Positions 7,915 through 43,369 of a DNA stretch of 43,380 bases are shown here, in pieces. This stretch comes from a virus (taxonomy: Duplodnaviria > Caudoviricetes). The position numbers and the translations under genes are program-made. Location of the stretch: IMG/VR virus record IMGVR_UViG_3300018050_001064, positions 1 through 43,380 of that record. The stretch is one strand, 5' to 3'. The notes beneath the pieces are model-generated. The model did no database searches. It was given only the letters and a program-made list of their open reading frames with translations, and was not told the origin of the DNA. Each line of letters starts with the position of its first letter. Position 1 is the first letter of the stretch.

Positions 7915-7957
7915 AGGTCAGTAGCGTGCCTCGACTATCTGTCTTGTCAACAGGTAA

Positions 7958-8305: not shown

Positions 8306-8327
8306 GTTTGTTCGACTACCGCTTCGA

Positions 8328-9218: not shown

Positions 9219-9262
9219 AGGATTATATTATTTGGGGTTAAGGGTTTGGGTTTGGAAAGTTG

Positions 9263-10084
9263 TCAACCATTTGCCTGTTGATTGGCGATTCGCTGGGCGG
9301 CGCCGAAGCCAGCGAGACCACCAGCCTTGGCGGCTTTGTCTCCTGCTTGGTAGCGAGCACCCTGCGTATCCTTGAAGATTTGGTTGATGGTAGCGATGTT
9401 GGTGCGGGCGTAGCCAGCCTTCGACAGAAGAGCACCCAACTTTGCGGCGACAGGGGAGTCGGACGGGAAGCGGAGCGTGCCTTCCTTGGACATATGCTGG
9501 TAGACCCAAGCACGAACAGCCTTGTCGGGGATAGCCTTAGGGTTAATCTTCCAGCCGTTCACATTGCCATCCTTGTCGAAGGCGGCACCACGGAGATTCG
9601 GAGGAAGGTTGATAGAGAACACGCCGTCCTTCTGGTTCTTGGTGACATCGACACGGGTCTTCTGAACCACATATGTCGAGCCATTGCCGAACTTGATGGA
9701 CTGAACGCCATCCGCACCGATGGTGACTTGACCACCAGAGGCTTGCTGGGTTTCGCCGTTAGGCTTGATGAGGGTAACTGCGTCCTTCTTACCACCGAAG
9801 CGGGTATCTTGGACGATGATAGTGCCGTCCTTGGACTGCATAACGCCAAACTGCGTCAGAGCGAGGATGCGACCAACCTCGGACTTAGGCACTCGGAGCG
9901 TGCCACCACCCGCATTCGTGATGCGAGCGATAGCCTCATTCACATCGCCACCAGAGGCGACGGAGCGGTTTGCCGCTTCGACCTCCGCACGGCTACCTGT
10001 GCCGTATTCGTTCGCTTGAGAGCCGACAGGAGCCATCTTGCCCTCCTGTCGTGCCACATAAACATTAACTCCGCCTCTTGCCAT
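9263..10084 (-). CDS. Head-module protein with degenerate MARG leader
   Basis: 273 aa between scaffold and capsid genes; starts MARGGVNVYVARQE. Confidence 0.7.
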   Translation of the reverse strand: MARGGVNVYVARQEGKMAPVGSQANEYGTGSRAEVEAANRSVASGGDVNEAIARITNAGGGTLRVPKSEVGRILALTQFGVMQSKDGTIIVQDTRFGGKKDAVTLIKPNGETQQASGGQVTIGADGVQSIKFGNGSTYVVQKTRVDVTKNQKDGVFSINLPPNLRGAAFDKDGNVNGWKINPKAIPDKAVRAWVYQHMSKEGTLRFPSDSPVAAKLGALLSKAGYARTNIATINQIFKDTQGARYQAGDKAAKAGGLAGFGAAQRIANQQANG

Positions 10085-10119: not shown

Positions 10120-11913
10120 TTAAGAGCGGGTGCGACGCTTGAGGTTCGCCTGCACGGCACGACCAATCTGCGAGGCGTTAGCCTTGAAGAAGCGGTTCTT
10201 CTCACGAGCGTCGGTCATTGCCTCGAACTTGGCGAGGATGTCGGCATCGGTGACAGGAGCGTCGCCTTGGATTTCAGCGGCAACAGGCTCGGAGGCACTC
10301 TGGGCAACAATCTTTGCCGCCTTGGCTTCGAGGGACTTGTCGGTGGCTTCGGCTTGGGCAAACTTGCTCATCATCGCCTCGAACTTGGCTTGGAGTTGGG
10401 CGACAGCGGTCATCGCTTCGTCCTTCGCCTTCACTTCGGCGGCAAGGGCTTGACCCTGCTTGGCGAGTTCGGCTTCAACCTTCTGCTTCGCCTTGGCAAC
10501 TTCAGCCAGACGCTCGACAGCGACATCGACCACGGAGTCCATAGACTGCTTGGCGACGGCAACGAGCGGGGCTTCTTCAGCGATAGGGGACTTGTCACCG
10601 ATTTCGGTCGTGTTACCCTTGGTCGGGGCACAGCCGTCTTCGTGAACCTTGGTCTCGTCAGAGGCACAGTTGTCCTTGACGCACTTCTCGACGGATTCAG
10701 CCTTCTTGCCCTTCTTGGCATCCTTCTTGTCGAGGAAAGACTCTTCTTCGTCTTGGTCGGGCTGACCTGTGACATCGTTCTTGTTAACGCCACCGATGGA
10801 GTTTTCGCCCTTCTTGGCGGTTTCCTTCTTCTGCTTCTCTTGGTTGACGAGTTGCTTGAGGTATTCCATCAGCGGGGCAGGGATTTCGTCTTCGCCAGCC
10901 TGCTTCGCAACGGCTTCAGCCTTCTTCGCACCCTTACCCGGCTTGGACAGGGTGACTTCGTGCTCGTGCTCTTCGCCTTCGGATTCCTGCATATCGGGAG
11001 ATTCCATAATCTCTTCGACATCGGTTTCGCCCTTCGCCTTGCCAGCCTTGGCGGCGAGTTTCTTGTTAAGGGACGGGGAGGTGGTGTTGTCCTCGTTCAC
11101 ATTGTTCTTGTTAGGGTCAAGACCCGGCTGGGGGATAATGTCGCCGAAGTTCTTTGTCTCTTCCTTGAGAGGGGACTTGAGGGTCGAATCAGCCTTCTTG
11201 CTCTTCGCCTTGGAGGCGTTACGATACTCACGGAGCATTTCCATTTCGTCTTCGGAAAGTTCGCCGTAATCTTCTTCGTCTTCATAGGAAGCCTTGGAAG
11301 CCTTCTTGCCCTTCTTGGACTTGTAGTTGCAGGCTTCTTCGGACTCTTCTTCTTCACGCTCTTCAATCTTTTCCTTGATGAAGTCGGGCATTTCAGCCTT
11401 CTTGCCTTTCTTGGCTTCGTTCCGCATACCCGGAGACGGGTGATTAGGGTTCTCTTCGGCTTCGGCTTCTTCCTTTTCCTCAATCTTGTCCTTGATGAAT
11501 TGGGGCATCTCGCCCTTCTTGCCCTTCTTGCCAGCATCGAGGTGTTGCTTCTCGGCAGGGGTGTTGCCTTCTTCGCCGTCTTCCATACGCTGCTTCACAT
11601 ACTCGTTGAGGTCAGCCTTCTTGGCGGCTTCCTTTTCGAGGCGAACCACATTGGCTTGGAGTTCCTTCAGAACCTTGGCGGTCATCTCACGCTCGGCGAG
11701 CAGTTCGCCCAACTTGGCGACGATAAGGGGGTCAACCGCAACAGGCTCGGAAGCCTTCGGGGCGGAGAGAGCAGTCTCGATTTCAGCAAGACGCTTCGAG
11801 AGGGCTTCCTTTTCAGAAGCGAGTGAGGTAACCTGTTCAGAGAGGGCGAGGGTCTGCTTCGACGCTTCGATAGCCTCCTTGAGTTGCTGTTCGACGGACT
11901 TGGTATTGCTCAT
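10120..11913 (-). CDS. Capsid scaffolding protein (long, repeat-containing)
   Basis: 597 aa, E/K/A-rich, coiled-coil ends, follows the S49 protease, basic C-terminus. Confidence 0.7.
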   Translation of the reverse strand: MSNTKSVEQQLKEAIEASKQTLALSEQVTSLASEKEALSKRLAEIETALSAPKASEPVAVDPLIVAKLGELLAEREMTAKVLKELQANVVRLEKEAAKKADLNEYVKQRMEDGEEGNTPAEKQHLDAGKKGKKGEMPQFIKDKIEEKEEAEAEENPNHPSPGMRNEAKKGKKAEMPDFIKEKIEEREEEESEEACNYKSKKGKKASKASYEDEEDYGELSEDEMEMLREYRNASKAKSKKADSTLKSPLKEETKNFGDIIPQPGLDPNKNNVNEDNTTSPSLNKKLAAKAGKAKGETDVEEIMESPDMQESEGEEHEHEVTLSKPGKGAKKAEAVAKQAGEDEIPAPLMEYLKQLVNQEKQKKETAKKGENSIGGVNKNDVTGQPDQDEEESFLDKKDAKKGKKAESVEKCVKDNCASDETKVHEDGCAPTKGNTTEIGDKSPIAEEAPLVAVAKQSMDSVVDVAVERLAEVAKAKQKVEAELAKQGQALAAEVKAKDEAMTAVAQLQAKFEAMMSKFAQAEATDKSLEAKAAKIVAQSASEPVAAEIQGDAPVTDADILAKFEAMTDAREKNRFFKANASQIGRAVQANLKRRTRS

Positions 11914-11942: not shown

Positions 11943-12953
11943 TCAACCGATGTAAGGATTCGGCGTATCAAGAGAGGTAGGTGACATCGGCTGGGAATAC
12001 ATCGTGGGGAGCATCTGGCGATGTGCCTGCCTGCGGGTATTCTTGATTTCTTCCAGCAGAGCGTCGAACGAATCGACGATGCCCGTGGTTAACCCACGCT
12101 GTGCCGCCTTGTCTCCGTAGAACGACTGCCCTTGTAGGTCTTCCAGCGATGCGAACTGTCGGACGGAACGGACATCTCGGATAAATCTGCCGTGCAGTTC
12201 ATCGACCTCGTCTTGGAGGGCGTTGATTTGGTCGGGGGTAAGGCTTGTGCCTTCCACGCCTGCCGCCTTGTATTTTCCCGACTTGATGACGACTACTTCA
12301 CGACCTTCCTTCTCGAACTTCTTACGCTCGTCGGTCATTGTGATGTAAACGCCACACGCTCCTACTGAAGCCGAGGGGGTGCAAACAAAGCGTTTGCATT
12401 GTGATGCCATCCAATAAGCCGCCGAACCGCAGTCGGAGTCGGTAAAGGCAATGGTCGGCTTGTCGTATGTGCGGATTTTCTTCGCAAGTTCCTCCAGACC
12501 CGTAGTGCTACCGCCCCCAGAGTCCATATGGAGAACCACCTCGAAGACTGTGTCGTCCTTCATCCAAGCGTCGAGTTGGCTCGCAATCTTGTCGATGTCC
12601 GCACAACCAAGCATCGCCTCAAGGGGAGATAGGCACTTACCAATGACTCCACGCACAGGGATGATGCCCGTGCCATCCTTGACATACGGCATTGATGCCA
12701 CGGCGAGACCAGCAGATGCCGCCATCTTTTCGATGTCCTCATCGTCATCAGCGACGGGGGCGGCACGGAAACGCTTTGCCTTCGGACCGACTTCAGCCTT
12801 CGGCATCGGGTTCATATACGCCGACAAATGGTATGCAATCTCTGGGTTAGAGACGATAAGTTCAGCGTTCTTCAAAAACGCCTGTGCCTTAATAGGGTCA
12901 ATGAGGAGGGGTCGTCCCGCCTTCAAGGCGTAGTGTAAGTCGCTTCTAATCAT
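11943..12953 (-). CDS. Prohead protease, peptidase S49 family (lambda gpC-like)
   Basis: LHMDSGGG, CGSAAYWMAS, SVGACGV and IKSGKYK motifs of SppA/S49. Confidence 0.9.
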   Translation of the reverse strand: MIRSDLHYALKAGRPLLIDPIKAQAFLKNAELIVSNPEIAYHLSAYMNPMPKAEVGPKAKRFRAAPVADDDEDIEKMAASAGLAVASMPYVKDGTGIIPVRGVIGKCLSPLEAMLGCADIDKIASQLDAWMKDDTVFEVVLHMDSGGGSTTGLEELAKKIRTYDKPTIAFTDSDCGSAAYWMASQCKRFVCTPSASVGACGVYITMTDERKKFEKEGREVVVIKSGKYKAAGVEGTSLTPDQINALQDEVDELHGRFIRDVRSVRQFASLEDLQGQSFYGDKAAQRGLTTGIVDSFDALLEEIKNTRRQAHRQMLPTMYSQPMSPTSLDTPNPYIG

Positions 12954-14677
12954 CTGGAGAAAGGTTGCTCTCTGTTACGGGAAAGCCCCGGATTTTGTTT
13001 TGGCAGGGTGTCAACAGAGGTTTCCATCTGCGACGCAGGCTCTGCGGCGGGAGTCTTCGGAGGAGGCGAGAGTTCTGGTTCGCTGTTCGTAAGCGGGTCG
13101 CCAGCCATTTCTTCCGCTTTCTGCCCCACAACTTGGTCGATAGGAACAATCTGCGGTTGTCCATCGGGACCCGGCATAACGATACCCATCGCCCCTTCGG
13201 GAATGGTGTTCGGTTGCTGTTGAGGCTGACCGCCACCACCGCCAGAGGGCGACTTACGCCAAAGTTTGTCTTCTGGGACACCCGTCTCCTTTGACACACG
13301 CTGAATAAATGCGTGGTCACGGGCAATCTTTCGGATGGTCTTCTCAAACCCGTAGCCACGGCTCTGGAAGTCGTCGCTAGGAGGGATACGACCCATATCA
13401 AGGTCGGCACGCTCATTAGCACCCTCACGACCAGCATCAACTGTGACCGACTTACAGCAAACCCACTCCGTCTTCCACCAATTGCGGGCGTTTGGGATTT
13501 CCTTTCGGTCGATTTTAAGACCACACCAGAATTGGAAGTAGTCTTGTAGGAATCGGTTTATGATAATCGTCTGTCTGTGCGAGAAGAAGCGTCCCGCCTT
13601 CGCTACCACGAGGCGAACGGAAGCACCTCCAGCACGAGTCGGGTCTGCAACAAACTCGTATGGCAAGCCCCCCATAACAGAGTCCCTGCGTAGGTGGTCA
13701 ATAAATCCAGCAAAAGCCGCAGACGGACGGGCGGACTGATAAGAAACAAGGCTTTCATTGTTCTGTAAAACGGCGGTCACACCACCAAGCACTCGGTTCA
13801 GAGCGTCGGGGTCGGTATTGGCGGTAGAGGAGTTGCCCTCGCCCAAAGGCTGACCAAGACCAAGGTCACCCGAATCCATTCTGGTGTCTTCCACCTTTAG
13901 GATACGAGAAGTGCGTGAATTGTCCTTAACAGCGACCTTCTCCATCGCCAGCAAGTCCATTTCGTCACGCATATGATTGATAGCGTGCTGATGGGGCGGG
14001 AAGGCTCGGCTCTGGGAGGCGTATTCTGCGTCGAAGATGTGAATCATCGAGGCCGCCTTAATAGGTTCATACTTTCCGTCGCCCTGCTTTACATAATAAA
14101 AGGTCGGCTTTCCGTATTTGTCGAAGCGGATGCCGTCAAAGATGTCGGGGAGCGACATCGCATCGGGCGGGGTCTCCACTCTGTGGGCTTCGATGATTTG
14201 GAACTTCGGGTTGCCCTTCTTATCCTTGCACTTGATGATGAAGATTTCCCCGTCCCTATCCAAGGCTTCGCAAAGGATGTAAAGGGCTTCGAGCATTGAG
14301 AAACGCCCAGACATTTCTGGACGGATGCACTCCTGCTCCCACTCGGCTTCCACCAAGTTCTGCCAATCGTATTCGCCACCCAAGCATTGCAGTCCGATGC
14401 CCTCGCCTATCGAGTAGATGGCGGTGTCTTTAATCATCTGCTTGTAGAGTCCGTTGTTCTTCTCCAGCCAACGGGAAAGGCGAACCATCTCACGACGGGT
14501 CTGCCCCGTCATTTCCATTCGGAAATCGGTCGGCTGGGGTGCGTCGATGCGGGTTCTGTGAACCGAATAGCGTGTGGACTCAAAAGCCCCTTGGTAGGCT
14601 TTCGGCTTCAAGAGGTTAGACAGGCTCATACGAACCCTGTCAAAGACGCTCGGTTTCGGTTGGTTATCGGGTGGCAT
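12950..14677 (-). CDS. Portal protein, lambda family
   Basis: 575 aa; SRWLEKNN, RDGEIF, QIIEAHRV and DGIRFDKYGKP motifs. Confidence 0.9.
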   Translation of the reverse strand: MPPDNQPKPSVFDRVRMSLSNLLKPKAYQGAFESTRYSVHRTRIDAPQPTDFRMEMTGQTRREMVRLSRWLEKNNGLYKQMIKDTAIYSIGEGIGLQCLGGEYDWQNLVEAEWEQECIRPEMSGRFSMLEALYILCEALDRDGEIFIIKCKDKKGNPKFQIIEAHRVETPPDAMSLPDIFDGIRFDKYGKPTFYYVKQGDGKYEPIKAASMIHIFDAEYASQSRAFPPHQHAINHMRDEMDLLAMEKVAVKDNSRTSRILKVEDTRMDSGDLGLGQPLGEGNSSTANTDPDALNRVLGGVTAVLQNNESLVSYQSARPSAAFAGFIDHLRRDSVMGGLPYEFVADPTRAGGASVRLVVAKAGRFFSHRQTIIINRFLQDYFQFWCGLKIDRKEIPNARNWWKTEWVCCKSVTVDAGREGANERADLDMGRIPPSDDFQSRGYGFEKTIRKIARDHAFIQRVSKETGVPEDKLWRKSPSGGGGGQPQQQPNTIPEGAMGIVMPGPDGQPQIVPIDQVVGQKAEEMAGDPLTNSEPELSPPPKTPAAEPASQMETSVDTLPKQNPGLSRNREQPFSR

Positions 14678-26386: not shown

Positions 26387-26424
26387 TCTCCAACCCAGAT
26401 ACCAACACCCAACCTAACACACAT

Positions 26425-28867: not shown

Positions 28868-29077
28868 ATGAAGGGCGTGAGAAAAAAGAGAACTTGGAAG
28901 AGACCAGCCCACGGAGGCGGTCACCTCGTGGCTGGCTTGAAGAACCAGACTCCGTCAGAGTTTGCCGTCACACAGCAATACTTCACATCTGCCAAGGCTC
29001 GCTGGGAATACTTGTTCCACCCCGACCGCAATCGCTGGTTTAAGCGACTCGACGACCGCCCCGCCCCGTCTCCTTGA
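28868..29077 (+). CDS. Hypothetical protein
   Basis: 69 aa, last of the plus-strand block; 3' end overlaps a convergent gene. Confidence 0.45.
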   Translation: MKGVRKKRTWKRPAHGGGHLVAGLKNQTPSEFAVTQQYFTSAKARWEYLFHPDRNRWFKRLDDRPAPSP

Positions 29078-29378
29078 GACCGATGGGATTGCCGTTGGCA
29101 TCCCGTTCAAGCGTCAAGCGTGTCGCCGTAATCTCACGACCGCCAAGCAAGAAGCGTCCTACCACGGAGCGGTCACGCACGACGGACAAACGGACGGGCT
29201 GTGCCTTGCCGTTATCGTAAAGCAACACGAGGTCTCCCTGCTGATACAAGTCCTTCAGAGTGCCTTCTGGATTGTTGCGGAAGTAGCCAGCGACATCGGC
29301 ACGCACAGGCTCATCCGCCATCGTGCGGACGCTGATGCCCTGCACGCTTGAGCGTGGTTTTGTCTGCCCTCTTGCCAT
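29040..29378 (-). CDS. Protein with degenerate MARG leader
   Basis: Starts MARGQTKPRSS; GTTGACA 15 nt upstream of the ATG. Confidence 0.65.
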   Translation of the reverse strand: MARGQTKPRSSVQGISVRTMADEPVRADVAGYFRNNPEGTLKDLYQQGDLVLLYDNGKAQPVRLSVVRDRSVVGRFLLGGREITATRLTLERDANGNPIGLKETGRGGRRVA

Positions 29379-29402
29379 ACGCCCGTGGCGTTATGTCAAC
29401 GC

Positions 29403-29597
29403 TCACTTACCCTCTTCCAACATCTTGGAAATCAATGCCTTAATCTTCTTTTCGGAGAGTCCTTTTAAGGTCGCTTCGAGGATGGCATCTTCCTGCTCTT
29501 GGGTAAGTTCGGCGGGCTTCGAGTTCGGACCGACTTGCTTCTTCGGGTCACGCTCGTTGCCGTCCATATTGTCGCCTGTGGTTCGTCCTTTGGTCAT
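29403..29597 (-). CDS. Hypothetical protein
   Basis: 64 aa, 4-nt overlap with the upstream gene. Confidence 0.5.
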   Translation of the reverse strand: MTKGRTTGDNMDGNERDPKKQVGPNSKPAELTQEQEDAILEATLKGLSEKKIKALISKMLEEGK

Positions 29598-30301
29598 AGA
29601 TTTTTTGTGGTGTATCCGATGTTCAGTTTGCGGTCAACCATCTTAAGCATATCGTCGAGGGCGGTCGCAAGGTCTTTGGTCGTCGCCGAGTATGTGGCAT
29701 CGCCCTTGTATCCGAGTTTCGCAAACGCCACTTCTCTGGCGGCGTTGAGCATCTTCTCGACATCCGATTCCTTCATCTTCCAAAACTTCGAGTCCTTCGG
29801 CGGACTGATGCTGAAGACCTTGTCACCCGCAACGGCACGAAACTCCTTTGCCTTTGCGAAGTGTAGGAGGGTCACATCCGCTCGTGAGAACGGCAGAGAA
29901 ACGCCATCGACGATGGGGTGGTTGTGCGTAAAGATTCTGCCCTTCATAGCCTTGATTTCCTTGTTGGATAACCACACAGCCGAGCCGTTGTGCGATGTCT
30001 TGACCATCACCTGTGTGCCGTCTTCGTCGTAAACCGCCCCGTGTTCGACATTGGCGTTCGAGATGGTTCGCTCCGCAACGGCGATTTCCTTGTTCGCCAT
30101 CTCAATCAATTCCTGTGTAGGAGGCAAATCATCGCCCTCTGACTGCACGCCGTCCTTCTCGATGAGAGCCTTGGACTTGACCAGATTGCCGACGAGTCGC
30201 ACAGCAGGCGACTTCTGGCTCATAATAGCACGCACGGATGTGCTTTCGCTACGGGCTTCCCGCCCGCCTCGTGTGCCCCTGCCATTGCTTCCTCGTGACA
30301 T
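29594..30301 (-). CDS. MARG-leader family protein with JAB/JAMM-like domain
   Basis: MSRGSNGRGTRGGREARSE leader; EHGAVYD...FTHNHP...FSRAD. Confidence 0.7.
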   Translation of the reverse strand: MSRGSNGRGTRGGREARSESTSVRAIMSQKSPAVRLVGNLVKSKALIEKDGVQSEGDDLPPTQELIEMANKEIAVAERTISNANVEHGAVYDEDGTQVMVKTSHNGSAVWLSNKEIKAMKGRIFTHNHPIVDGVSLPFSRADVTLLHFAKAKEFRAVAGDKVFSISPPKDSKFWKMKESDVEKMLNAAREVAFAKLGYKGDATYSATTKDLATALDDMLKMVDRKLNIGYTTKNL

Positions 30302-30304
30302 CGG

Positions 30305-30985
30305 TTATGGGGCGAGGATTTTGATGAGCCGTGAGGTGATTGCGTCACGGGCGATTTGCACGGACTCGTTCAGCCCCCTACTCATAACCTTGGTGAAGTC
30401 TTTGTTGGTTTTGAGGTTGGCGGAATACTCCAGACCGACCTTCCCCTCATACGATGTGTTCCAATTCTTGATGGCACGCTCGCCGTCTTCCCCGCCCTGT
30501 GCCCCACGGATGATAGCCGATGTTCGGCGAACCACCTCATCTACGAAAATCTGCTTTGCCTTGGACTCGACTGTGGCGGTTTCAGAGCCGGGGCGACCAA
30601 ACGCCCAATCCTTGGTGAAATCCTTGAACTCGTCTGGGAACTCCGCCTTGAGGTATCCGAAGTCCTTGGATACGACCTCATCCCAGAGGCGACCAGCCTC
30701 CTTCTTGGCATAATCAACAGTCTCCTTGTCTAGGAAGTATCCCGTCTGCCCCTTCGACTCAAAGGACTCAAACAGCGTCTTACGCTGGGACTCATCCAAT
30801 GGGGCGAGAGCCTTGGTCATCTTGGCGGACACCTCACCCAAATCCTGCTTCTGCGTCCACTTGATGCCTGTCGTAGTGGCGAGCATATCGAAGCCCACAG
30901 TAACCATACGGGTATCACGGCGGGGCGTGGATGCCCCCTCCGAGCGTGCCGCTCGTCCGTCTCGACTGTTGCTACCTCTCGCCAT
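30305..30985 (-). CDS. MARG-leader family protein
   Basis: Begins MARGSNSRDGRAARSE. Confidence 0.8.
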   Translation of the reverse strand: MARGSNSRDGRAARSEGASTPRRDTRMVTVGFDMLATTTGIKWTQKQDLGEVSAKMTKALAPLDESQRKTLFESFESKGQTGYFLDKETVDYAKKEAGRLWDEVVSKDFGYLKAEFPDEFKDFTKDWAFGRPGSETATVESKAKQIFVDEVVRRTSAIIRGAQGGEDGERAIKNWNTSYEGKVGLEYSANLKTNKDFTKVMSRGLNESVQIARDAITSRLIKILAP

Positions 30986-31433: not shown

Positions 31434-31450
31434 CCCTTGCAGGGTGGTTG

Positions 31451-32332
31451 TTAGTCAACCAGATTGTTCAGTCCAGACTTCGGGTCGATGCGTGTAACCT
31501 TAAAGCCAGAACCAGACTTGGACTGACCTTCCTTGTATGGACGACCAGCAGGTCCAATTGCTTTCGCAATCTGCTCTATCTTGTAACTGCCAACCTTCGC
31601 ACCCTCTGCGATGCTTTCAGCCTGCCACGCTGAACTTGAGATGATTTCAGCCGTCTGCTTAACGCCATTCTTGCGACCAATGTCGCTACCAGCGGTGGCG
31701 GCGGCAAGTTGGAGACCACGGGGAGATGCGTCAAAAGTTCCAATAACACGGAGAGATTGAGTGCCATTGGGTGTATTGTTCTCAATTAGGTCGCCACGGA
31801 AGATGCCAACTGTGCCTTGCGGGTCGTTGGTATCCCAAGTGTGCGGGATGGCGTAAAGTTTCTTGTTTGCATCCAAGGCAAAAATGAAGCCGTTTTCCTT
31901 GTTAGCGTCTCTATTTCCACGCTCAAAAGCATCGCTCGCTTCTTCTGACCTTGTAGACTTTGTTCCAGAGCGGTCAAACCCGCCCTTTTGACGATACTCG
32001 TAGTCAATCTTCTTTCCGTCAACTGTGCTTTCCATCAAGTTCAACTTGCCAACCTTCTTTAGGTGGTCGGATTCGGCAATGTCGATTTTGTATGACTCTC
32101 TGTCTGGGCGGAAATCGGTCAGTTCTTTGACGGCTCGGTTGTTCGCCAGATACAACTTCATAGCGGTCAACGCCTTGTCCTCGTCAAACTTGGAATTGTC
32201 GGCTTCGGCTTTAAATGTCTCCAACAGGTCTACCGCCCTGTTAATGCGAGCCTGTGCAGTTTCAGCACGAAAGACTGTGCCCGCCTCGGAGCGTGCCGAA
32301 CGACCTTCGCTTGCTCGATTACCTCTTGCCAT
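31451..32332 (-). CDS. MARG-leader family protein
   Basis: Begins MARGNRASEGRSARSE. Confidence 0.8.
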   Translation of the reverse strand: MARGNRASEGRSARSEAGTVFRAETAQARINRAVDLLETFKAEADNSKFDEDKALTAMKLYLANNRAVKELTDFRPDRESYKIDIAESDHLKKVGKLNLMESTVDGKKIDYEYRQKGGFDRSGTKSTRSEEASDAFERGNRDANKENGFIFALDANKKLYAIPHTWDTNDPQGTVGIFRGDLIENNTPNGTQSLRVIGTFDASPRGLQLAAATAGSDIGRKNGVKQTAEIISSSAWQAESIAEGAKVGSYKIEQIAKAIGPAGRPYKEGQSKSGSGFKVTRIDPKSGLNNLVD

Positions 32333-32367
32333 AGTGCCTCTTGGTCTGTGTCAACGCCCCGTAGGCA

Positions 32368-33186
32368 TCAACCAAGCCCAATCTTCTTGTCTCTAAAGCC
32401 CTTGGCGATTTCGCTGGAGATAATTGCCTTTTGTTCCTGCGTAAGGTCTTTGCGTTCAAGCGTCTCGGTAATTGCCTGCATACGAATCTTCTGGGTGTCT
32501 GGGTTGTATGCAGAACTTGCGGAACGCTCCGACTTTGCGGCACGACCACCAGACAACTGATTACGGGGGTCTTTTTCCTGCCAAGTCATACCCGCCCGTT
32601 GCATTCTGTCATAGCCCTCACGCAGGGCAAGGTCAACCAACTTGGCGGCGGTCTTTTCTCCGAATGTAGGAGTAAGGTCGCTGATACTCAATTGAGCAAA
32701 CCCAGAGAAATTACGCTGACCTTGGACAAACGCTCTCATCATAAGGTCGTTAGCCAAAGCGATGACCGCTTTACGACCTCGACCAAGCCCTTCTTGGACA
32801 TAACCCGCTCCACCCTTTGCGGTAATACGCTTATCCCTGTCTGTTTCGTTTGCCAAAAGGTTAATTGCTTCGGCAACCTTCTTGTTGCCAATCGCTTCAT
32901 CGCTTCTGACAGAAATCAATCTGTCGTAGGCTTTGCCGTTCGTATCATAAAGTTCCGTCAATGTGGTTGGCTTGGTCGGTATAATCTTGTCCGCAATCTG
33001 GTTGAGAGCGTTAGAAATAGCCACGACTGTTTCCCTTGAAATGGCGTTGCTCTTAACAAGACCAACCTCGTTGATTTGAGACTTCATAAAAGAAGCCCCA
33101 GCCTGCCCCTCCGCTCCTTGAAATGCGGAAGAACCACCCTCACTTCGGGCGGCTCGACCTTCTCTGCTGTTGCTTCCTCGTGCCAT
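32368..33186 (-). CDS. MARG-leader family protein with second internal motif
   Basis: Begins MARGSNSREGRAARSE; internal GGRAAKSE near the C-terminus. Confidence 0.8.
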   Translation of the reverse strand: MARGSNSREGRAARSEGGSSAFQGAEGQAGASFMKSQINEVGLVKSNAISRETVVAISNALNQIADKIIPTKPTTLTELYDTNGKAYDRLISVRSDEAIGNKKVAEAINLLANETDRDKRITAKGGAGYVQEGLGRGRKAVIALANDLMMRAFVQGQRNFSGFAQLSISDLTPTFGEKTAAKLVDLALREGYDRMQRAGMTWQEKDPRNQLSGGRAAKSERSASSAYNPDTQKIRMQAITETLERKDLTQEQKAIISSEIAKGFRDKKIGLG

Positions 33187-33221
33187 AGTGATTGTTGGGT
33201 TATGTCAACGGAAGGTAGGCA

Positions 33222-33686
33222 TCACCCCAGCATATCACGAATGTCCCGATTGGTCTGGTAGTCCACCGCCTCAATTGCTCGCTTGATGATGTCCATATAC
33301 TCCTTGGCTTCTCTGCCAGACGGACCACGACCCTCCTTAATCCACTTTGTGCCCATCGACTCAAGGGCATCTATGGCATCCATAACATACGGGCTGTCGG
33401 GCACTTCGCCGTTCATTGCACCCGCAAACTTGCTACGCTCCTTGTAGGCTTCCTTAATGTGGAAGATGGCGTTGTCTCTGGCTTCACGCTCTTCGCCCTT
33501 GGGGTCGGTGTATTGGTAAGAGGCGTTGTTTTGGGCAATGCCACGGAAGTCCCTGCTGATGGTGTCTTCGTTCACATTGCGTCCGCCCTGTGAGGCACGC
33601 TCACGGGAGGTAAAGTCTGAAGAGCCATATTGGTTGGCTTCGGAACGAGCCGCTCGCCCCTCGGATGATTTGTTGCCTCGTGCCAT
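33222..33686 (-). CDS. MARG-leader family protein
   Basis: Begins MARGNKSSEGRAARSE. Confidence 0.8.
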   Translation of the reverse strand: MARGNKSSEGRAARSEANQYGSSDFTSRERASQGGRNVNEDTISRDFRGIAQNNASYQYTDPKGEEREARDNAIFHIKEAYKERSKFAGAMNGEVPDSPYVMDAIDALESMGTKWIKEGRGPSGREAKEYMDIIKRAIEAVDYQTNRDIRDMLG

Positions 33687-33704
33687 AGTAGTCGTGGGTT
33701 ATTG

Positions 33705-34127
33705 TCAGCCCCGATACGCCTCTTTGAGAGTCGCCTCGTTGATGGCATCGAACATCGAATCAACTTGGATTTCTGGTAGGTCAGTAACCACTTTGCCTCT
33801 CGATGTGACCACCTTGAGGTCATACACATCAGAGCCGTAGCGGTATTTCAGTTCGACATTCCATCCTGCGCCGGGCTTGGTGACCTTGAAGGTCAAGGTA
33901 GTGTCCCCGTTCTGGATGCCCGTGAAGCGGAGAGAACCACGCTGGACATACGCCCCCAGACCAAACGGGCTGTAATCCTTCGCCAGCGTGTTCAGTTGGT
34001 CTACCATCGTGCGGGCAACCTCCTTGTGTCGCTCGGTCTCACGAGGGGACAGCGTATTGGTTATCGTGCCAATCTCTGATAGGGCGGCTCGTCCAGAGCC
34101 AGATGATGAATTAGAGCCTCGTGCCAT
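33705..34127 (-). CDS. MARG-leader family protein
   Basis: Begins MARGSNSSSGSGRAALSE. Confidence 0.8.
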   Translation of the reverse strand: MARGSNSSSGSGRAALSEIGTITNTLSPRETERHKEVARTMVDQLNTLAKDYSPFGLGAYVQRGSLRFTGIQNGDTTLTFKVTKPGAGWNVELKYRYGSDVYDLKVVTSRGKVVTDLPEIQVDSMFDAINEATLKEAYRG

Positions 34128-34136
34128 AGTCGTAGA

Positions 34137-34733
34137 TTAAGGATTGAAGAACGCCTGTCGGGCTTTTTCCTTCTTGTCGTATTCGGCTTGGAGTGCGTTC
34201 TCCGTGGCAAGAAGCCTGTCCACTTTTGCGTATGCTTCTGGGACGATAGCCTTGATGCTTGCGTCAATCTCGTCCATCGAGCGACCACGATTGGAGGCTT
34301 TGTCCATATAGTCCGCCATCGGTTGTCCGTATTCCTTGCGGAATGCGACTTCGAGTTCGTCACGAGCCTTGTTGGTTTCGGCGGACGCTTCGTTGTAAAA
34401 GTTCTTCGCACGAACAAAGTCTGCCTCAATCTTCTTCCCCTCTGGGGTGGCAAGCAGACGCTCACGGGAGTTCTCACGAGCCTTGGTTCGCTCCCTGCGG
34501 TTCACCTGTTGCTGAAGCCATTGACCATAAGACGGGGCACGGAGTCCGTTCGCACGGCTCTCATAAGCCTCTTCGCCGTATTGGGCGAGGATGTCGTCTT
34601 TGTTGGCTGGGTAGCCCCTGTTGGCGTTCTTGAGGAGATAAGCCTCCGCATCGGAGGTGGACATCTTCCCGATGTTAGGCACGCCCTCGCTTCGAGCGGA
34701 GCGTCCTGTGCTTGCGTTCTGTCCTCGTGCCAT
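34137..34733 (-). CDS. MARG-leader family protein
   Basis: Start re-assigned to ATG 34733 (MARGQNASTGRSARSE), which removes the overlap with the upstream gene. Confidence 0.8.
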   Translation of the reverse strand: MARGQNASTGRSARSEGVPNIGKMSTSDAEAYLLKNANRGYPANKDDILAQYGEEAYESRANGLRAPSYGQWLQQQVNRRERTKARENSRERLLATPEGKKIEADFVRAKNFYNEASAETNKARDELEVAFRKEYGQPMADYMDKASNRGRSMDEIDASIKAIVPEAYAKVDRLLATENALQAEYDKKEKARQAFFNP

Positions 34734-35868: not shown

Positions 35869-36801
35869 TTAGTTAATCCACGGCGGGAGGGTGAACGAGG
35901 TCACGCCCTTCGTGTGGACAGGGAAGTCGTTGTTGGCGATGCAGACGGAGAGGTTCTCCATCAGACGCTGACGGATTGCAAACGCTTTCTCAAGCGAACC
36001 AGCATCGAGTTCGTAGAGAGCCGTGCAATACGGCGGGTTCTTTTCCGCCGCAATGAAGATGAACTTCTGGATGGGAATGCCAGCCTTACGGCAGATAGCG
36101 ATATAGTGGCAGGCTTGCATCCAATAGCCCATCTGCATAAACGACTTGTTGAAGCCGTCAGCGGATGCGTCCTCACAGGTTTTTAGGTCACAGATAACTG
36201 TGTTGTCCATCGTGATGAGGTCGGCACGACCTTTGCAAACGATGTCCAGACCATTGACCTTCTCCACGGAGACGATGGAGACTTCGACCTTGGCGGAAGC
36301 GTGAGTGAGGTAAGGCTCGACCTCCTTGTTGGAGCGAACGCTCGTAGCCATACCCTGCACCTGTGCGTATTCGTCCTGCGACAGGATAATCTTGCCCTCG
36401 TTCTTGGCGTAAAAGTCCTTCCACCAAGCGATGGCGGTCACCGCATCTTCGCTCGGCTTCTTGGCATCCATCTGTGCCTTGGTAGGCTTCTTCGGAGCGT
36501 CGTCGGGGACGACAACGATTTCCTCGTTGAACTTGTGAGGCTCGAAGACGGCGAGGTGCGTAGCCGTGCCGATGTGCATCGCCTTGGTAGACGGCTCGGA
36601 GGGGCTGGTCATCCAATGCCAGAAGTGTGCGGGAGATTTGCGGAGCATCATCAGACCACTCTTGGTCAAGCCAAGGATACGATGGTAGTCTTCCGCTTGG
36701 ATGTTGTCATACGAACCCTGTGCGAGCGAGGGTGCGTCTTGCTTCCCGCCAGAGGCAAGGGCAAAAGTGTTGAGGGCAGGAGTAGTTGCGTCGTTAGTCA
36801 T
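35869..36801 (-). CDS. RecE/exonuclease VIII-like PD-(D/E)XK nuclease
   Basis: KSPAHF, GTATHLAVFEP, CKGRAD, DLKT and YWMQACHY motifs; start re-assigned to ATG 36801. Confidence 0.85.
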   Translation of the reverse strand: MTNDATTPALNTFALASGGKQDAPSLAQGSYDNIQAEDYHRILGLTKSGLMMLRKSPAHFWHWMTSPSEPSTKAMHIGTATHLAVFEPHKFNEEIVVVPDDAPKKPTKAQMDAKKPSEDAVTAIAWWKDFYAKNEGKIILSQDEYAQVQGMATSVRSNKEVEPYLTHASAKVEVSIVSVEKVNGLDIVCKGRADLITMDNTVICDLKTCEDASADGFNKSFMQMGYWMQACHYIAICRKAGIPIQKFIFIAAEKNPPYCTALYELDAGSLEKAFAIRQRLMENLSVCIANNDFPVHTKGVTSFTLPPWIN

Positions 36802-36841
36802 AGTCGTAGGAATGGCTGTTGTGCTGGTTAACGCCTCTCTG

Positions 36842-37675
36842 TCAAGAGGCATTCACGATACCTTCGAGGATGCCGACAATCTTCGAGGGGTTAGAGAGGA
36901 TACGCTGTGCGGTCATCGCATCGAGGTCTCGGTAAGTCTTGCTTTCCTTGATGAGTTTCTTCTCGATGAGGTAGTTCGTGGCGTGAGGCTCGAACTTGGA
37001 GAGCACTTCGTCCAGACGGGCGATGACAGCCTGTGCGGGGTCAACCACGACTTCGGTCTTCTGCTCCACACGCTGATACTCCACGGGCTTGGGCAGGGGC
37101 TTGTCCTGCGAGGAGAAGTCGGAGACCTCTTCGGGAGTGTAGATGCCAGAGATGATTTGCGGAGCGAGGAGACGGACGGCTTCGGAGACATTGCGAGCCG
37201 TGAGCATCTGCTTCGGGAACTTACGCCAATTGTCCTTGAGACCACCCTTGGCGGACATAGCGATGCCGTTGTTCTTGAACTCTTCGAGGGTCGAGGCGAT
37301 TTCGACATCGTTGCCATCCTTCGACCAGATAGCACGCACTTCGACATCGGAGCGGACGAGCCACTTGACCTTACCGCCCGTAGTGAGATAGCGACCCAGC
37401 ATAGCATCGGCTCGCATCGTCAACTTACCCTCGATAATGTGATAGGTCTTGGCGAGTTCGAGCGGGGCTTTGCCTTCAGCGAGGCATTGCATCGCCAGCA
37501 CCATACCCTGTTCGGGCTTGACGCAACCGAACATACCAGAAGCCCAAATCATCTCGCCCATCTTCTCGATGGCTTGGATGGGGTCGGTGATTTTGTTGTA
37601 GATGCCAACGCTGTTGGATGCGTTGGTGAGGTTGGAGTTGACCTCGATGATTTCTCCGTTGTTTTCGTGAGACAT
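36842..37675 (-). CDS. RecT-like single-strand annealing protein
   Basis: YHIIEGK, NWRKFPKQML, GIYTPEE motifs; paired with the RecE-like gene; start at ATG 37675. Confidence 0.75.
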   Translation of the reverse strand: MSHENNGEIIEVNSNLTNASNSVGIYNKITDPIQAIEKMGEMIWASGMFGCVKPEQGMVLAMQCLAEGKAPLELAKTYHIIEGKLTMRADAMLGRYLTTGGKVKWLVRSDVEVRAIWSKDGNDVEIASTLEEFKNNGIAMSAKGGLKDNWRKFPKQMLTARNVSEAVRLLAPQIISGIYTPEEVSDFSSQDKPLPKPVEYQRVEQKTEVVVDPAQAVIARLDEVLSKFEPHATNYLIEKKLIKESKTYRDLDAMTAQRILSNPSKIVGILEGIVNAS

Positions 37676-37694
37676 AGTGCGTTGTGCGAAACCT

Positions 37695-37723
37695 GTTATG
37701 GGTAGTCGCACGCACTTCGTCAA
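37695..37723 (-). promoter_or_regulatory. sigma70-type promoter
   Basis: TTGACG-N17-CATAAC. Confidence 0.65.
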
Positions 37724-39077: not shown

Positions 39078-39794
39078 TCAGTCTTCGACGAAGGTGTTAA
39101 GGACGATGGCAATCTTCTTCATCTTTGTCTCCATCGCCCTGTTGTTAGGCATTCCCTTGACCGCAAACCAATTGCGTTCCTCGTATCGGTCTTCTGGGTC
39201 ATCGGAGTTCAGTAGCGGGCTTCCATAACGAACCAACTCCCACGCCTTCTGCTCCTTGTTATAGACGGCTTGGAACGAACCCTTTCTGTATCCGTTGCCA
39301 CCTTGACCAAGCATTTCGTATGTAGGATTCTTACCAACCTTCTGTGCCTCAAAGTAATTGCTCAACGCACGCACCAGCATCGGGTCATCCTTGCGGAGCA
39401 TCGTATCGCCAGCCTCCTTCAACTCCTTGTTGAACTGCTCCTGCTCGCTGTAAAAGCCTCTTGGCTTCAGTAACTCCATAGGTAGCCCCTTCTCCTTGAA
39501 CAGGGCAAAAGCCTCCTTGGCTTTGTCTTCACCACCCAACGAGGCGACCAATCTTGCTTGGTCTCGCTTCGCCAGCACATTTTGTGCGTCGGCGACCGCA
39601 TCCTTTGTTCGGTTCTCCTTACTCTGGATTTCCGACACTACATAGATAGGCACATAGACAGCATCCTTCTGCTGAAGACCAAAGTCCACCTCGCCCTTCA
39701 CGGGCGGAGGGGTCGTTCGTTGGGTTCGCTCGAAGTCACGATAGACCTCGCTCCGTGCGGAACGACCCTCTCGGCTGTTAGAGCCTCTTGCCAC
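39078..39794 (-). CDS. MARG-leader family protein
   Basis: GTG start, MARGSNSREGRSARSE. Confidence 0.8.
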   Translation of the reverse strand: MARGSNSREGRSARSEVYRDFERTQRTTPPPVKGEVDFGLQQKDAVYVPIYVVSEIQSKENRTKDAVADAQNVLAKRDQARLVASLGGEDKAKEAFALFKEKGLPMELLKPRGFYSEQEQFNKELKEAGDTMLRKDDPMLVRALSNYFEAQKVGKNPTYEMLGQGGNGYRKGSFQAVYNKEQKAWELVRYGSPLLNSDDPEDRYEERNWFAVKGMPNNRAMETKMKKIAIVLNTFVED

Positions 39795-39797
39795 GGA

Positions 39798-40562
39798 TTA
39801 GATGTAATCGAGTGAATCGACGACCTTGCCACCTACACGGAAGGAAACTTGTGGCATACTTGTGTATCCGAAGCCATCACCATAATACTCCGTCTGCGTC
39901 TGGGTCATAGAACGACCAAGGTTTCTGACGGCATTACGAAGTTCGGAGCGTTTCGGCAATTCCGTGCCTTCTGGGAAGTCGATGCGAATCTCATCCTTGC
40001 GTGAACCCTTGAAGGTGACCTTGGCTTCACGATACTTGTCGCCAAATGTGCCTTCCTTGAGTCCTTCCTTAACGGATGTTAGGAACTGCTCCGCACGACC
40101 CTTGCCGTCAAGGTTGCCGTTGTAGAGAATACCCGTCTGGACTACATAGTTACCAGAATCCGAGGTCTTCACTCTTTCGCCAAGTTTCTCAAAGAACTCC
40201 TTGTCCGTCTTGGAACTCTTGGTGATTTCACCAAGCATAGCAAAACGCTCTTGGGCATCCTTGTTGTTGCGATTCCATCTCTCGATTTCAAACCCCTTAA
40301 GACCCGCAGGGGCGGGCTTTTCAAACAATGTCGAAGAGGTGCTGAACACCTTTTCCTTTGCTTGGTATGTAGGTGTCTTCTCAAACACATCATTGAGTTT
40401 CTTGCCCAAGGGGCTTGTTTCGCCTGCGGTCGTCCGTGTGAAGGCTGTCAAATCAAGACCCGGCGGCTTGTAGTTGGGGTCTGGAGCCGGGGGCGGGGGA
40501 ATGATGTCGTTCACCGAACTTCTGGCGGTGCGACCTGTTGAAGCATTTTGACCTCTTGCCAT
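39798..40562 (-). CDS. MARG-leader family protein
   Basis: Begins MARGQNASTGRTARSS followed by a Pro-rich linker. Confidence 0.8.
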   Translation of the reverse strand: MARGQNASTGRTARSSVNDIIPPPPAPDPNYKPPGLDLTAFTRTTAGETSPLGKKLNDVFEKTPTYQAKEKVFSTSSTLFEKPAPAGLKGFEIERWNRNNKDAQERFAMLGEITKSSKTDKEFFEKLGERVKTSDSGNYVVQTGILYNGNLDGKGRAEQFLTSVKEGLKEGTFGDKYREAKVTFKGSRKDEIRIDFPEGTELPKRSELRNAVRNLGRSMTQTQTEYYGDGFGYTSMPQVSFRVGGKVVDSLDYI

Positions 40563-40580
40563 AGTAAGCCTTGCCTATTG

Positions 40581-40994
40581 TCAACGGGGCAGGCGAAACA
40601 TCCGTTTGTCGTCCCCCATCACGAACCCGAACTTCTCGTAGAGGGCGATGAGTTCTTTCTTACCAAGTTTGCGGACTCTCACCGAATAGCGACTTAAGGG
40701 ATACGGGGTTGGCGTGAGGTCGGTGATGCCTACCTTGTATTTGTCTGCGAATTGGCATATCTTTCCGATGACCATCGAACCACCACCCGTGTCCATAGCC
40801 CGTATGGAGTCTATGATGAGGTCGTCCCCGTCCTTGGTGAGCCGTAGCGTCCCTCGGATTAAGTCGCCTTGCTGGTTGACCCCCGTGGAGAGGATGGAAT
40901 GCCTACTATCGTTATAAGGCGAGGGTGAACCAAAGATGTCCTGTGTCTCCAGCAGGCTTAAGCCCGTGACCCGTGCGAAATCCTTTATTCGCAT
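40581..40994 (-). CDS. GNAT-like protein without leader
   Basis: IDSIRAMDTGGGS...FADKYKV...LYEKFGFV resembles 6515..7063. Confidence 0.55.
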   Translation of the reverse strand: MRIKDFARVTGLSLLETQDIFGSPSPYNDSRHSILSTGVNQQGDLIRGTLRLTKDGDDLIIDSIRAMDTGGGSMVIGKICQFADKYKVGITDLTPTPYPLSRYSVRVRKLGKKELIALYEKFGFVMGDDKRMFRLPR

Positions 40995-41257
40995 TACGAG
41001 GGTAGCGTGCCGATAACTGCCCGAACCCTGTCGATAGCCTCGACAGCCATCTTGGCGGCGTGAAGACGCTCTTGCCCGCTCGTGTCCTGCCCAGCCAACA
41101 GGTATGGAGTCTTGTCCAATGTGTTCTGATTTACGAGTAGGTTAATGTTCTGCTGTGCCGCCTTGAGGTCAGCAATACAGGTAGCCAGCATACGCCTGTG
41201 CGTGTTCAAGTCTGGTGTCCCCATTCTGGAGAGAACCACGATGCTTTCCTCGCTCAT
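40994..41257 (-). CDS. Hypothetical protein
   Basis: 87 aa, TAATG coupling. Confidence 0.6.
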   Translation of the reverse strand: MSEESIVVLSRMGTPDLNTHRRMLATCIADLKAAQQNINLLVNQNTLDKTPYLLAGQDTSGQERLHAAKMAVEAIDRVRAVIGTLPS

Positions 41258-41265
41258 TGGCGGGC

Positions 41266-41634
41266 TTACTTTTGCTTCTTCGGTGCGGGAGCAGGGGCAG
41301 ACTCACGGATGGTAGGCATCTTCGGGTCTGCTTGGTCTTTTTCGTGCTGTTCAAGCACTTGGCGTGCCTTCTGCACTTCTTGCTGTCTGGCTTCAAACTC
41401 CTTGGCGATACGCTTGAACTCCTTGTCGATGGTCTTCGGGTCGGTCGCCTGTTGCCAGCGGGCGTGTAGGATTTGGCTGTGCTTCTCGCCCTTAATCCAA
41501 GCGTTCATCACATCCTCACCACATTCAATGATACGCTGACGGGCAATCTGCTCAACGGAAGCCATCTGCTTCAGTTGGGCTACTTGAGCCGTAAGGGTCA
41601 TAATAAGTTGTGTTGCTTCTTCGCAGGCTTGCAT
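41266..41634 (-). CDS. Hypothetical protein
   Basis: 122 aa, helical. Confidence 0.6.
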   Translation of the reverse strand: MQACEEATQLIMTLTAQVAQLKQMASVEQIARQRIIECGEDVMNAWIKGEKHSQILHARWQQATDPKTIDKEFKRIAKEFEARQQEVQKARQVLEQHEKDQADPKMPTIRESAPAPAPKKQK

Positions 41635-41640
41635 AGGTCG

Positions 41641-42261
41641 TTACTTGGTAAGTTCCTCGTAAATGTCGTTAACCATAACACGAACGCTCTTCGTGTCATA
41701 TTGGGAGACCTTCTTTTCTCCCGAATCACCCGCACCCTTGCTCGACTTGGCTGAAGACGAGACCATTTGCACGACTTGTTCGGCATACTGCTTCGCCTTG
41801 GTGCTAGGAATAGAGCCAAAATCACGCATCGTGGACTTGATAGAGTCTTCCAAGTCAGCAATCTTCTGGTCGTATTGAGCCTCGACCGCACGGGGGGACT
41901 CTTCACCGCCCTTGGCGATGTCATCCATACGGGATTGTCTTGCCGAGCGAAGGTAGGCAAGTTCCACAGAGTCAGTCACCAAGCCAGCGGCAAGGTCTTT
42001 CGCACTTGAGCCAGCAAACTTGAGCATCTTGTCGTCCTTATCGAGGTCTGCCGAAATAGTGTTCAACAGGTTCTTCACATCGTCAGACACGACGGCGTTC
42101 TTGACCGAATTGATGTCGATTCGACCATCCGAGCCGACAATCTTAAAATCCTTGGACGCTTCGGCAACCTTGCTCGAATTGCGGTTAGACCACGGAGTGT
42201 CTCGTGTAGGAGACTCGCTCCTCGCCGCTCTTCCCCCAGATGCTGTTGAACCTCGTGCCAT
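41641..42261 (-). CDS. MARG-leader family protein
   Basis: Begins MARGSTASGGRAARSE. Confidence 0.8.
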   Translation of the reverse strand: MARGSTASGGRAARSESPTRDTPWSNRNSSKVAEASKDFKIVGSDGRIDINSVKNAVVSDDVKNLLNTISADLDKDDKMLKFAGSSAKDLAAGLVTDSVELAYLRSARQSRMDDIAKGGEESPRAVEAQYDQKIADLEDSIKSTMRDFGSIPSTKAKQYAEQVVQMVSSSAKSSKGAGDSGEKKVSQYDTKSVRVMVNDIYEELTK

Positions 42262-42286
42262 AGATGCCCGTGGTTATCTGTCCACC

Positions 42287-43006
42287 TTACTTGGTCGGAG
42301 GGGGTGGAGGAGTCGGAGGTGTTGCACCGCCCGCAAGGCGAGCCTGTCGCTTCTTGAGGAGAGCCTTCGCACCAAGGTCAGAACGAAACTCCTTGGCGGC
42401 GATTTCGGACGCACCACCGGGATTGACATCAGAACCTTGCGTATTTCCGCCAAAAATGAACCTCGGACCACCGCCAGAAGACATCCACCAAGGACGCTCC
42501 TGTGCCGCCTGTTGGACTTCCTTTTCCTCTTTAGGTTCTGTTGACTTCGGGTCTTTCTTACCCTTCTTGGCGTTTGCTGGGTTCTTTGCGGAGTTAGCCG
42601 CACCAGCGGCGGACTGCTTACCACGGACATAACGCTCCCAAGCCTCTTGGCGTGCCTTTTCAGCCTCCTGCTCGGAGGCAAATTGTGCCTTATCCTGCTT
42701 GGTTTGTAGGTAATCCTTGAAAGCCTTCTCGGCGGCTTCGTTTGCCGCCAATTCCGCCTGTGCTTCAGCCGACTCAAGAGCCTGCGTGTTGCTTGCTGGA
42801 GGAGTTGGTGCTGGCGTAGTCGGAGACGGGGTCGGTGCAGGAGCGGGGGCTGGCTGGTTCGCCTGCGGGGATGTAGGAGCAGTCGCAGGGGGCATATTGC
42901 CACCCGTCGCCGCCTGTTGCTTCAAGGCTTCGGTGTTTCCACGGATGAGTTCTCCGATTTTACCCTCGGATAACGCATTTCTGCCTGCTCCTCGTCCTCG
43001 TGCCAT
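42287..43006 (-). CDS. MARG-leader family protein (Pro/Ala-rich, low complexity)
   Basis: Begins MARGRGAGRNALSE. Confidence 0.75.
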   Translation of the reverse strand: MARGRGAGRNALSEGKIGELIRGNTEALKQQAATGGNMPPATAPTSPQANQPAPAPAPTPSPTTPAPTPPASNTQALESAEAQAELAANEAAEKAFKDYLQTKQDKAQFASEQEAEKARQEAWERYVRGKQSAAGAANSAKNPANAKKGKKDPKSTEPKEEKEVQQAAQERPWWMSSGGGPRFIFGGNTQGSDVNPGGASEIAAKEFRSDLGAKALLKKRQARLAGGATPPTPPPPPTK

Positions 43007-43009
43007 AGG

Positions 43010-43369
43010 TTATTTCTTTTTGTATTTCTCGATGGTGTATTTGATATTGGACAACTCCGTGTTGGAGTCGCCACCAGATTCGGAGAACTTAACATTCGCC
43101 TCAATCTTCATCAAGTATGTTTCACCGCCAAATTGGAAGTTCATCGTTTCCGATGTGTATTTCGGGGCTACACGCCCATCTTCGGCATCAAGAGAAACCG
43201 ACTGTCCAATGTCTCGTAGGGCAAGCCGTCTGGCTGATTTAAAGGCATTGTCCGCCTTCATAGCATCCGTCGGAACAAGACCCTCGTAGACGGGCTTCAA
43301 GGGAGAACCAAGAGGCGGGGCTTCACTTCTTGCCGACCGACCTTCTCGACTGTTTGAGCCTCGTGCCAT
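43010..43369 (-). CDS. MARG-leader family protein
   Basis: Begins MARGSNSREGRSARSE. Confidence 0.8.
   Translation of the reverse strand: MARGSNSREGRSARSEAPPLGSPLKPVYEGLVPTDAMKADNAFKSARRLALRDIGQSVSLDAEDGRVAPKYTSETMNFQFGGETYLMKIEANVKFSESGGDSNTELSNIKYTIEKYKKK

Follow-up and report, generated by a model that had tools for sequence, protein, structure and literature searches.

A short N-terminal leader on otherwise unrelated genes of a lambda-type phage may act as a head-loading tag

Why would phage genes whose bodies show no likeness begin with the same short peptide? The question arises in a 43,380-nucleotide (nt) stretch of DNA, here called the window, which is the entire linear record of a tailed phage (G000; IMG/VR record IMGVR_UViG_3300018050_001064). 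Two of its minus-strand genes, named here by their first base, encode the same first 16 residues: gene 39794 (39078..39794, 238 amino acids, GTG start, leader at 39747-39794) and gene 43369 (43010..43369, 119 amino acids, ATG start, leader at 43322-43369). We found that 16 window genes, all on the minus strand, start with M[AS]RG, followed in the consensus by a small polar spacer, GR and an A-x-S-E end (A-x-S-E in 13 of the 16 and A-R-S-S in one, 14 in total). Column shuffles of the 11 ungapped leaders yield an identical pair in 4.5% of trials, so, given the motif, the pair by itself is only mildly unusual, and the family is the result. Five of the 16 genes fall within the span of a first-pass annotation of this sequence; the rest occupy 29040-34733 and 5652-10084. 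Searched with a pattern derived from the leader motif itself, the window gave 14 matches, while 60 codon shuffles gave no match (51 shuffles), one match (8) or two (1). The bodies of the leader genes share no BLASTP match at E<=1e-4 over at least 40 amino acids, and Pfam, PHROG and NCBIfam returned nothing useful for 14 of the 15 window cargo genes, which are the 16 without gene X, a gene beside the major capsid gene; a weak T4_Gp59_C row and a TolA row were treated as noise. From these sequences we consider it rather likely that the leader is a head-loading tag for injected effectors, working like the capsid targeting sequence (CTS) of phage T4 and standing outside that family.

The first-pass annotation had proposed that purifying selection acts on the leader as a peptide, and the family bears this out. 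In the identical pair, 9 of the 15 post-start codons differ, by 10 nucleotides that are all silent (10 differences over 12.6 synonymous sites, 0 over 32.4 nonsynonymous sites), and other copies switch serine between TCN and AGY codons (at position 15 of the 11 ungapped copies, AGT and AGC three times each, TCC and TCG twice each, TCT once). Across the 55 pairs of these 11 leaders, which are not independent, the proportion of synonymous differences (pS) is 0.73, or saturated, and that of nonsynonymous differences (pN) is 0.30; Jukes-Cantor correction gives a nonsynonymous divergence (dN) of 0.39 and a synonymous divergence (dS) of ~2.6, for a dN/dS of roughly 0.15 or less, clearly below 1. Codons 4-16 hold 117 identical codons, compared with 142±13 under synonymous resampling from cargo codon use, and RNAalifold found no consensus pairs in 10 leader regions. 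Because silent sites are saturated, codons 4-16 sit at or below chance identity and RNA pairing is absent, selection acts on the residues. The saturated silent sites rule out a recent duplication of the named pair, as the annotation had argued, and the absence of predicted structure removes RNA as the cause of conservation. The further claim that the leader is not conserved as DNA stands for codons 4-16 and fails for codons 2-3, whose silent positions are fixed (14 of 16 genes have GCA as codon 2 and all 16 have CGA or AGA as codon 3; 70 identical pairs vs 27.5±6.3 expected), and for an upstream (T/G)GACA box. Conservation as DNA is thus confined to the box and these two codons and does not extend across the whole leader unit. 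The codon 2-3 fixation, which may reflect the needs of translation start, is weaker in the related genome G009 and absent in G018.

What did not survive is the statement that the leader is not a recombination site, because alleles and cargo switch at leaders. When the window was compared with strain L094 (a 21-kb stretch of its 89-kb record), identity per 60-nt bin was 95-100% in the capsid gene, 43-90% in gene X and 28-83% in gene 6479, in which more than 40 nt spanning the box and codons 1-5 match without a difference before the alleles diverge from codon 6. Gene 7063 is mostly at least 95% identical and carries a 24-nt indel immediately behind the leader; the leaderless gene 7366 is likewise variable (73-88%). 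Furthermore, gene 32332 is a mosaic, with a box and leader like those of gene 5232 of the relative G001 (81% over 53 nt) and a body like that of the next G001 gene, 6144. Protein 33186 extends beyond the end of its G001 and G006 orthologues into a second half-leader (SGGRAAKSE, 32527-32553), likely a relic of two fused leader genes. Finally, in contigs from other lakes, loose ends fall at positions 32276, 32301 and 32335, and two joints lead to the leader of 32332; these were placed at a likeness of 90%, the sides measuring 44 and 58 nt, and are weak evidence when taken alone. The leader cassette is a working exchange point, and the two named copies are old while the cassette is still being shuffled. 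Recombination at the DNA of the box and first codons is the likely route by which these phages acquire, lose and exchange cargo genes, and the phage's own exonuclease VIII-like and RecT-like genes (35869..37723, minus strand), which lie between two cargo arrays, could possibly mediate leader-to-leader exchange.

Relatives found by leader pattern and capsid protein scans (40 stretches of 15 records examined) contain 86 leader genes in 54 families, gene X included; three loci picked up by a MATR-type pattern were set aside as isolated or chance matches to unrelated records. Each genome uses a single leader dialect: G009 has 22 cargo genes of MARGYSQSRSE type, G018 has 23 of MATR..LxSD type, G015/16 have 3 of MARS..RSD type, and G001 and G006 have 6 and 4. 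An unbiased count of common first four residues recovered a shared set in G000, G001, G005, G009, G015, G016 and G018, whereas no set exceeded three in the remaining 15 of the 22 records, of which many are fragments. For 25 of the 26 cargo proteins with a homologue in another dialect group, the leader was nearer to the unrelated leaders of its own genome than to that of the homologue (mean similarity 0.63 vs 0.34); dialect groups were set by eye, kin are not independent, and three leaders were cut short by the parser, one of them being the miss. Duplicates (G003, G010, G011, G013, and G016 except for one gene) were left out of this comparison. Eight of the 15 window cargo proteins have a leader that ends at residue 16, and 18 of the 22 in G009 have one that ends at residue 11. 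The leader's mean net charge over the first 16 residues is +2.2 in the window and only ~+1 in G009 and G018, and the first 22-27 residues are predicted to be disordered in both models. The dialects form clades on the tree of the S49 head maturation protease (11943..12953, minus strand), which points to a phage-encoded reader of the leader. A candidate for that reader, or docking site, is an acidic conserved block of the scaffold-like protein (10120..11913, minus strand, 597 amino acids; no family match, named by its position between the protease and capsid genes). This block (~residues 215-325, 10939-11271) is present in 19 of 19 leader-clade records with a head module and in 0 of 14 others. 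The scaffold-like protein is 486-597 amino acids long in the leader clade and about 330-410 elsewhere, and its gene in the window contains a 117-nt duplication (11336-11530).

Gene X (9263..10084, minus strand, 273 amino acids) lies between the scaffold-like gene and the major capsid gene (8328..9218, minus strand) and has a MARG start without the A-x-S-E end. Its start matches the dialect of its genome in 8 of 10 distinct genomes, and residues 1-27 are disordered by prediction. Fold searches of PDB and of viral libraries gave nothing at E<=0.001, and the Atlas gave no usable match; the model has a pLDDT of 67.5 and a best VIA Z of 5.5, to small beta-barrels, a common arrangement. Lambda gpD was not among the matches listed, and X may yet have a gpD-like fold. 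More distant relatives have another common start (MAGR[TS][FY] or MSRT[WY]HATG), shared by one or two genes: the gene at the X position and one more (L031:7923-9626, L078:10586-11404, L044:1194-2105). Neither gene X nor leaders were found in G030-G032.

If the leader is a head-loading tag, it would serve as an address on unrelated proteins that are synthesized late, would dock on a component of the phage head, for which the acidic scaffold block is the best candidate, and would thereby see its cargo enclosed in the prohead and carried into the next cell with the DNA as anti-host effectors. The precedent is T4, for which, in the parts of the literature covered here, internal proteins (IPs) are described as sharing only an N-terminal leader that packages them (PMC12373910, PMC3012670), such leader-bearing proteins being enclosed in the prohead and delivered with the DNA (PMC5694885, PMC3012670, PMC12373910, PMC9391042). 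As with the T4 CTS of IPI-III and Alt, a leader of 10-20 residues is the sole part common to diverse small proteins, its last residue is acidic and the loci are variable; T4 Alt is an ADP-ribosyltransferase (ART), as some of the relatives' cargo may be. However, the head here is lambda-type (lambda-family portal, S49 protease and gpA terminase) with no T4-type head or gp21-type protease, records carry 15-23 cargo genes in place of three IPs and Alt, and dialects are lineage-specific. The end motif is absent from capsid, portal and protease, and packaging and cleavage, known for T4, are here a likely and a possible step. We place the leader outside the T4 CTS family because of the lambda-type head and because the end motif does not mark capsid, portal and protease. 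Ejection-protein propeptides of SPN3US and phiKZ offer a second likeness (PMC5694885, as far as covered): identical N-termini stand on diverged head proteins, and the motif, cut at A-X-E or S-X-E, ends in E. Those phages differ: they are jumbo myoviruses whose proteases are related to that of T4, most of their propeptides are long, and their capsid and portal are cut at the same motif (PMC5694885). Cleavage of the leader after its final E is possible, with chances we put at about one in three, and is unsupported here because the end motif does not mark head proteins.

One cargo in particular is in keeping with delivery. Cargo 30301 has a JAB/RadC-like domain, confirmed by RadC rows on four homologues, and contains HNHP..SxxD, which we take to be the JAB motif. 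A profile search with it gave 2336 matches; among the best 150, 79 are at least 290 amino acids long, and 42 of these 79 bear Phage_Mu_F or Phage_min_cap2 (E<=0.001), and a phage S78 protease is found on another 3. The JAB domain of Dorea phage DO134P1 stands at the end of a MuF protein adjoining the portal gene. The MuF carriers and polyvalent proteins have the same passenger as the leader, on a folded carrier domain of one gene, whereas here a peptide of 11-19 residues is carried by many separate genes. MuF proteins are head components proposed to deliver passengers (PMC5576092, PMC5512222, PMC9503650, in the portions covered), and the cargo classes found here (JAB, GNAT, HD and ART-like) are enzyme types compatible with the early effectors that have been proposed. 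Neither MuF nor Phage_min_cap2 was found in the five leader-phage records, which are partial; in the window the portal gene (12950..14677, minus strand) is directly followed by the protease gene. The 71 shorter JAB homologues among the best 150, classed by eye, comprise 10 with this leader, 14 of MGGR/MAKTSG type, 11 of HPR..GRF type and 36 others. Starts that recur on short JAB homologues of unrelated phages are MGGR[GS]G, MAK[TM]SG.NRG, HPR..GRF, GNF.H.GRPG and CGTGAGGF (P0025-P0150), and these are perhaps further head-address peptides. We tentatively suggest, as a broader and rather doubtful scheme, that in this lambda-type lineage the MuF carrier was replaced by a peptide address code. The acidic scaffold insert would read an uncleaved, lineage-specific tag, 15-25 effectors would be loaded per head, the first codons and promoter box would be the exchange point of a cargo library, and, because JAB cargo is seen with other short starts, the leader would count among several head-address peptides that are interchangeable across tailed phages.

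Other cargo is less readily classed. Gene 7063 (6515..7063, minus strand, 182 amino acids) encodes GNAT acetyltransferase-like cargo (PF13508, E 0.001, below the family cut-off). Cargo of relatives includes HD phosphohydrolases (G005, G009), two pentapeptide-repeat genes (G006) and an ART-like family of six members with R..S..E residues, for which the best fold rows are all ADP-ribosyltransferases and weak (E 0.05 or worse, Z 5.0 or below). When the JAB and ART-like alignments were used as profiles to search solved structures, nothing matched significantly. The ART-like cargo has five paralogues in G018 and one in G009; loci for the ART-like, pentapeptide and HD cargo are L074:7894-8601, L076:14705-15628, L077:3473-6548 and L046:2774-3556.

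Several observations weigh against head loading. The leader phages are known here from their genes alone, so that packaging is something we infer. The [AS]xSE end occurs twice in the window scaffold and not at all in protease, portal or capsid, and LxSD is absent from the four G018 counterparts; this comparison used patterns derived from the leaders in place of the S49 protease's own motif. Evidence from carriers concerns one window cargo, and 13 of the 15 cargo bodies give no functional lead. Two word-index searches found no longer forms of the JAB and GNAT cargo, blanks that count for little because the profile search found many longer JAB forms. Replication and recombination genes, not the head/tail module, surround 12 of the 15 cargo genes, the scaffold block maps to one clade and thus to a single event, and gene X lacks a cargo-like start in G012 and G017. 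Late expression also turns on a candidate element, the (T/G)GACA-type box, which may be a late promoter element. That cargo and head/tail genes share this box nevertheless speaks for head loading: 8 of the 15 leaders have it 14-17 nt upstream (3 further leaders start 3 nt past the preceding stop codon) and 9 of 16 head/tail genes have it 12-42 nt upstream, compared with 3 of 13 other genes and 8.5% of random sites.

The position of most cargo genes outside the head module would also suit a tag that acts only inside the cell, where a protease, chaperone or modifying enzyme of phage or host would read it for timing or placing, with no packaging. Such readers would fit a free N-terminal motif, and the head binding partner is only a candidate; however, the upstream box is common to head/tail genes, the gene beside the capsid gene has the same start, and JAB cargo is elsewhere a passenger of head proteins, which together make this reading unlikely. 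A positively charged, disordered, Arg/Gly/Ser-rich arm could instead bind DNA, the tagged proteins riding it into the head or to the replicating genome. The window charge favors this and the values in G009 and G018 do not, fixed spacing and an invariant acidic end suit a shaped binding site, and dialects track the protease tree; we consider a DNA-binding arm distinctly unlikely.

Gene X bears on a third possibility, that the arm docks on the outer capsid like a decoration protein and the cargo is displayed rather than injected. The gene stands at what we take, from the lambda gene order, to be the position of lambda gpD, between scaffold and capsid genes, and is far more variable among strains than the capsid gene. 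Against display, the identifiable cargo consists of cytoplasmic enzyme types and MuF passengers, and we regard it as quite improbable. Least probable is that selection acts on a DNA cassette of promoter box, start region and recombination anchor, the peptide being a by-product. The conserved box and codons 2-3 and the mapping of swaps to leaders favor such a unit, but it is largely refuted: codons 4-16 retain G, GR, A, S and E with silent sites at or below chance identity, the codon 2-3 fixation fades in G009 and disappears in G018, and there is no RNA structure.

If head loading is correct, about 50 unrelated families, nearly all of them without annotation, are marked as virion-delivered by a leader of 11-19 residues and provide a ready candidate list of anti-defence or host-takeover proteins in a probable freshwater Verrucomicrobia phage group. 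CTS-like loading, so far a feature of T4-type heads, would then apply to lambda-type heads as well; the reader can be tested by means of the natural dialects, and a portable tag could load chosen proteins into small lambda-type capsids. New here are the lambda-type head, the precedence of lineage dialect over cargo ancestry and the passenger shared directly with MuF proteins; no published account of the leader was found in a partial coverage of main texts, and supplements could hold one.

Family searches of the window identified a gpA terminase, lambda-family portal, S49 protease, P22-coat-like major capsid protein, tape measure, primase, RecT and exonuclease VIII, alongside the 597-residue scaffold-like gene. 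CheckV rates the record complete, but the window is probably about half of the genome, because a capsid protein 100% identical to its own is found on an 89-kb contig (L094) and homologues of cargo 39794 are found on contigs of ~89 kb. The closest cultured capsid match is Verrucomicrobia phage P8625 (33% identity), and all runs containing at least half of the window stretch are freshwater (9 of 24 rows listed); a search of GTDB genomes for capsid relatives or a prophage found none. From these sequence matches, the host is a probable freshwater Verrucomicrobia.

The remaining leader genes, all on the minus strand, vary around the same theme. Downstream of 43369 lie 42287..43006 (239 amino acids, Pro/Ala-rich, a 14-residue short variant ending ALSE) and 41641..42261 (206 amino acids, GTGGACA box upstream), each with a G009 homologue, and 39798..40562 (254 amino acids, leader ending ARSS, GTTGACA box upstream), whose body is 64% identical to a G009 cargo bearing a different leader. 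Gene 43369 itself has no Pfam, PHROG or NCBIfam match. Gene 39794 starts 3 nt past an upstream TAA; in its homologue clusters, 9 of 12 others start MARG-x5-GR-x-ARSE with positions 5-9 varied, the other 3 being shorter calls without that end. Owing to the GTG start, the public record calls this protein (P0152) from a point past its leader, an example of how gene callers can conceal the tag. In the second array are 34137..34733 (198 amino acids, with G006 and G009 homologues in their own dialects), 33705..34127 (140 amino acids, an 18-residue variant ending ALSE), 32368..33186 (272 amino acids, with the internal half-leader where the G001/G006 orthologues end), the mosaic 31451..32332 (293 amino acids) and 29594..30301 (235 amino acids, a 19-residue MSRG leader on the JAB/RadC-like domain). 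The same array has leader genes 33222..33686 (154 amino acids) and 30305..30985 (226 amino acids), and 29040..29378 (112 amino acids) has the MARG start only, its G015 and G018 homologues having leaders of their own dialect. Near the head genes, 5652..6479 (275 amino acids) is the gene whose allele parts from L094 at codon 6.

The array goes on outside the window: a contig crossing its end (43377 and beyond) reaches another leader whose DNA is nearly identical to that of the 32332 leader. Leaderless genes stand among the cargo as well. One at 40581-40994 (minus strand) is a second GNAT-like gene, with weak tblastn likeness to the GNAT cargo region of relatives and no family match, and those at 41266-41634 and 40994-41257 hold their position in G009 and G018. 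An HNH endonuclease gene (30972-31433, minus strand) within the array overlaps leader gene 30985 at its start and is retained in relatives, and a DUF932 gene (26290-27294, plus strand) lies on the strand opposite to the cargo array.

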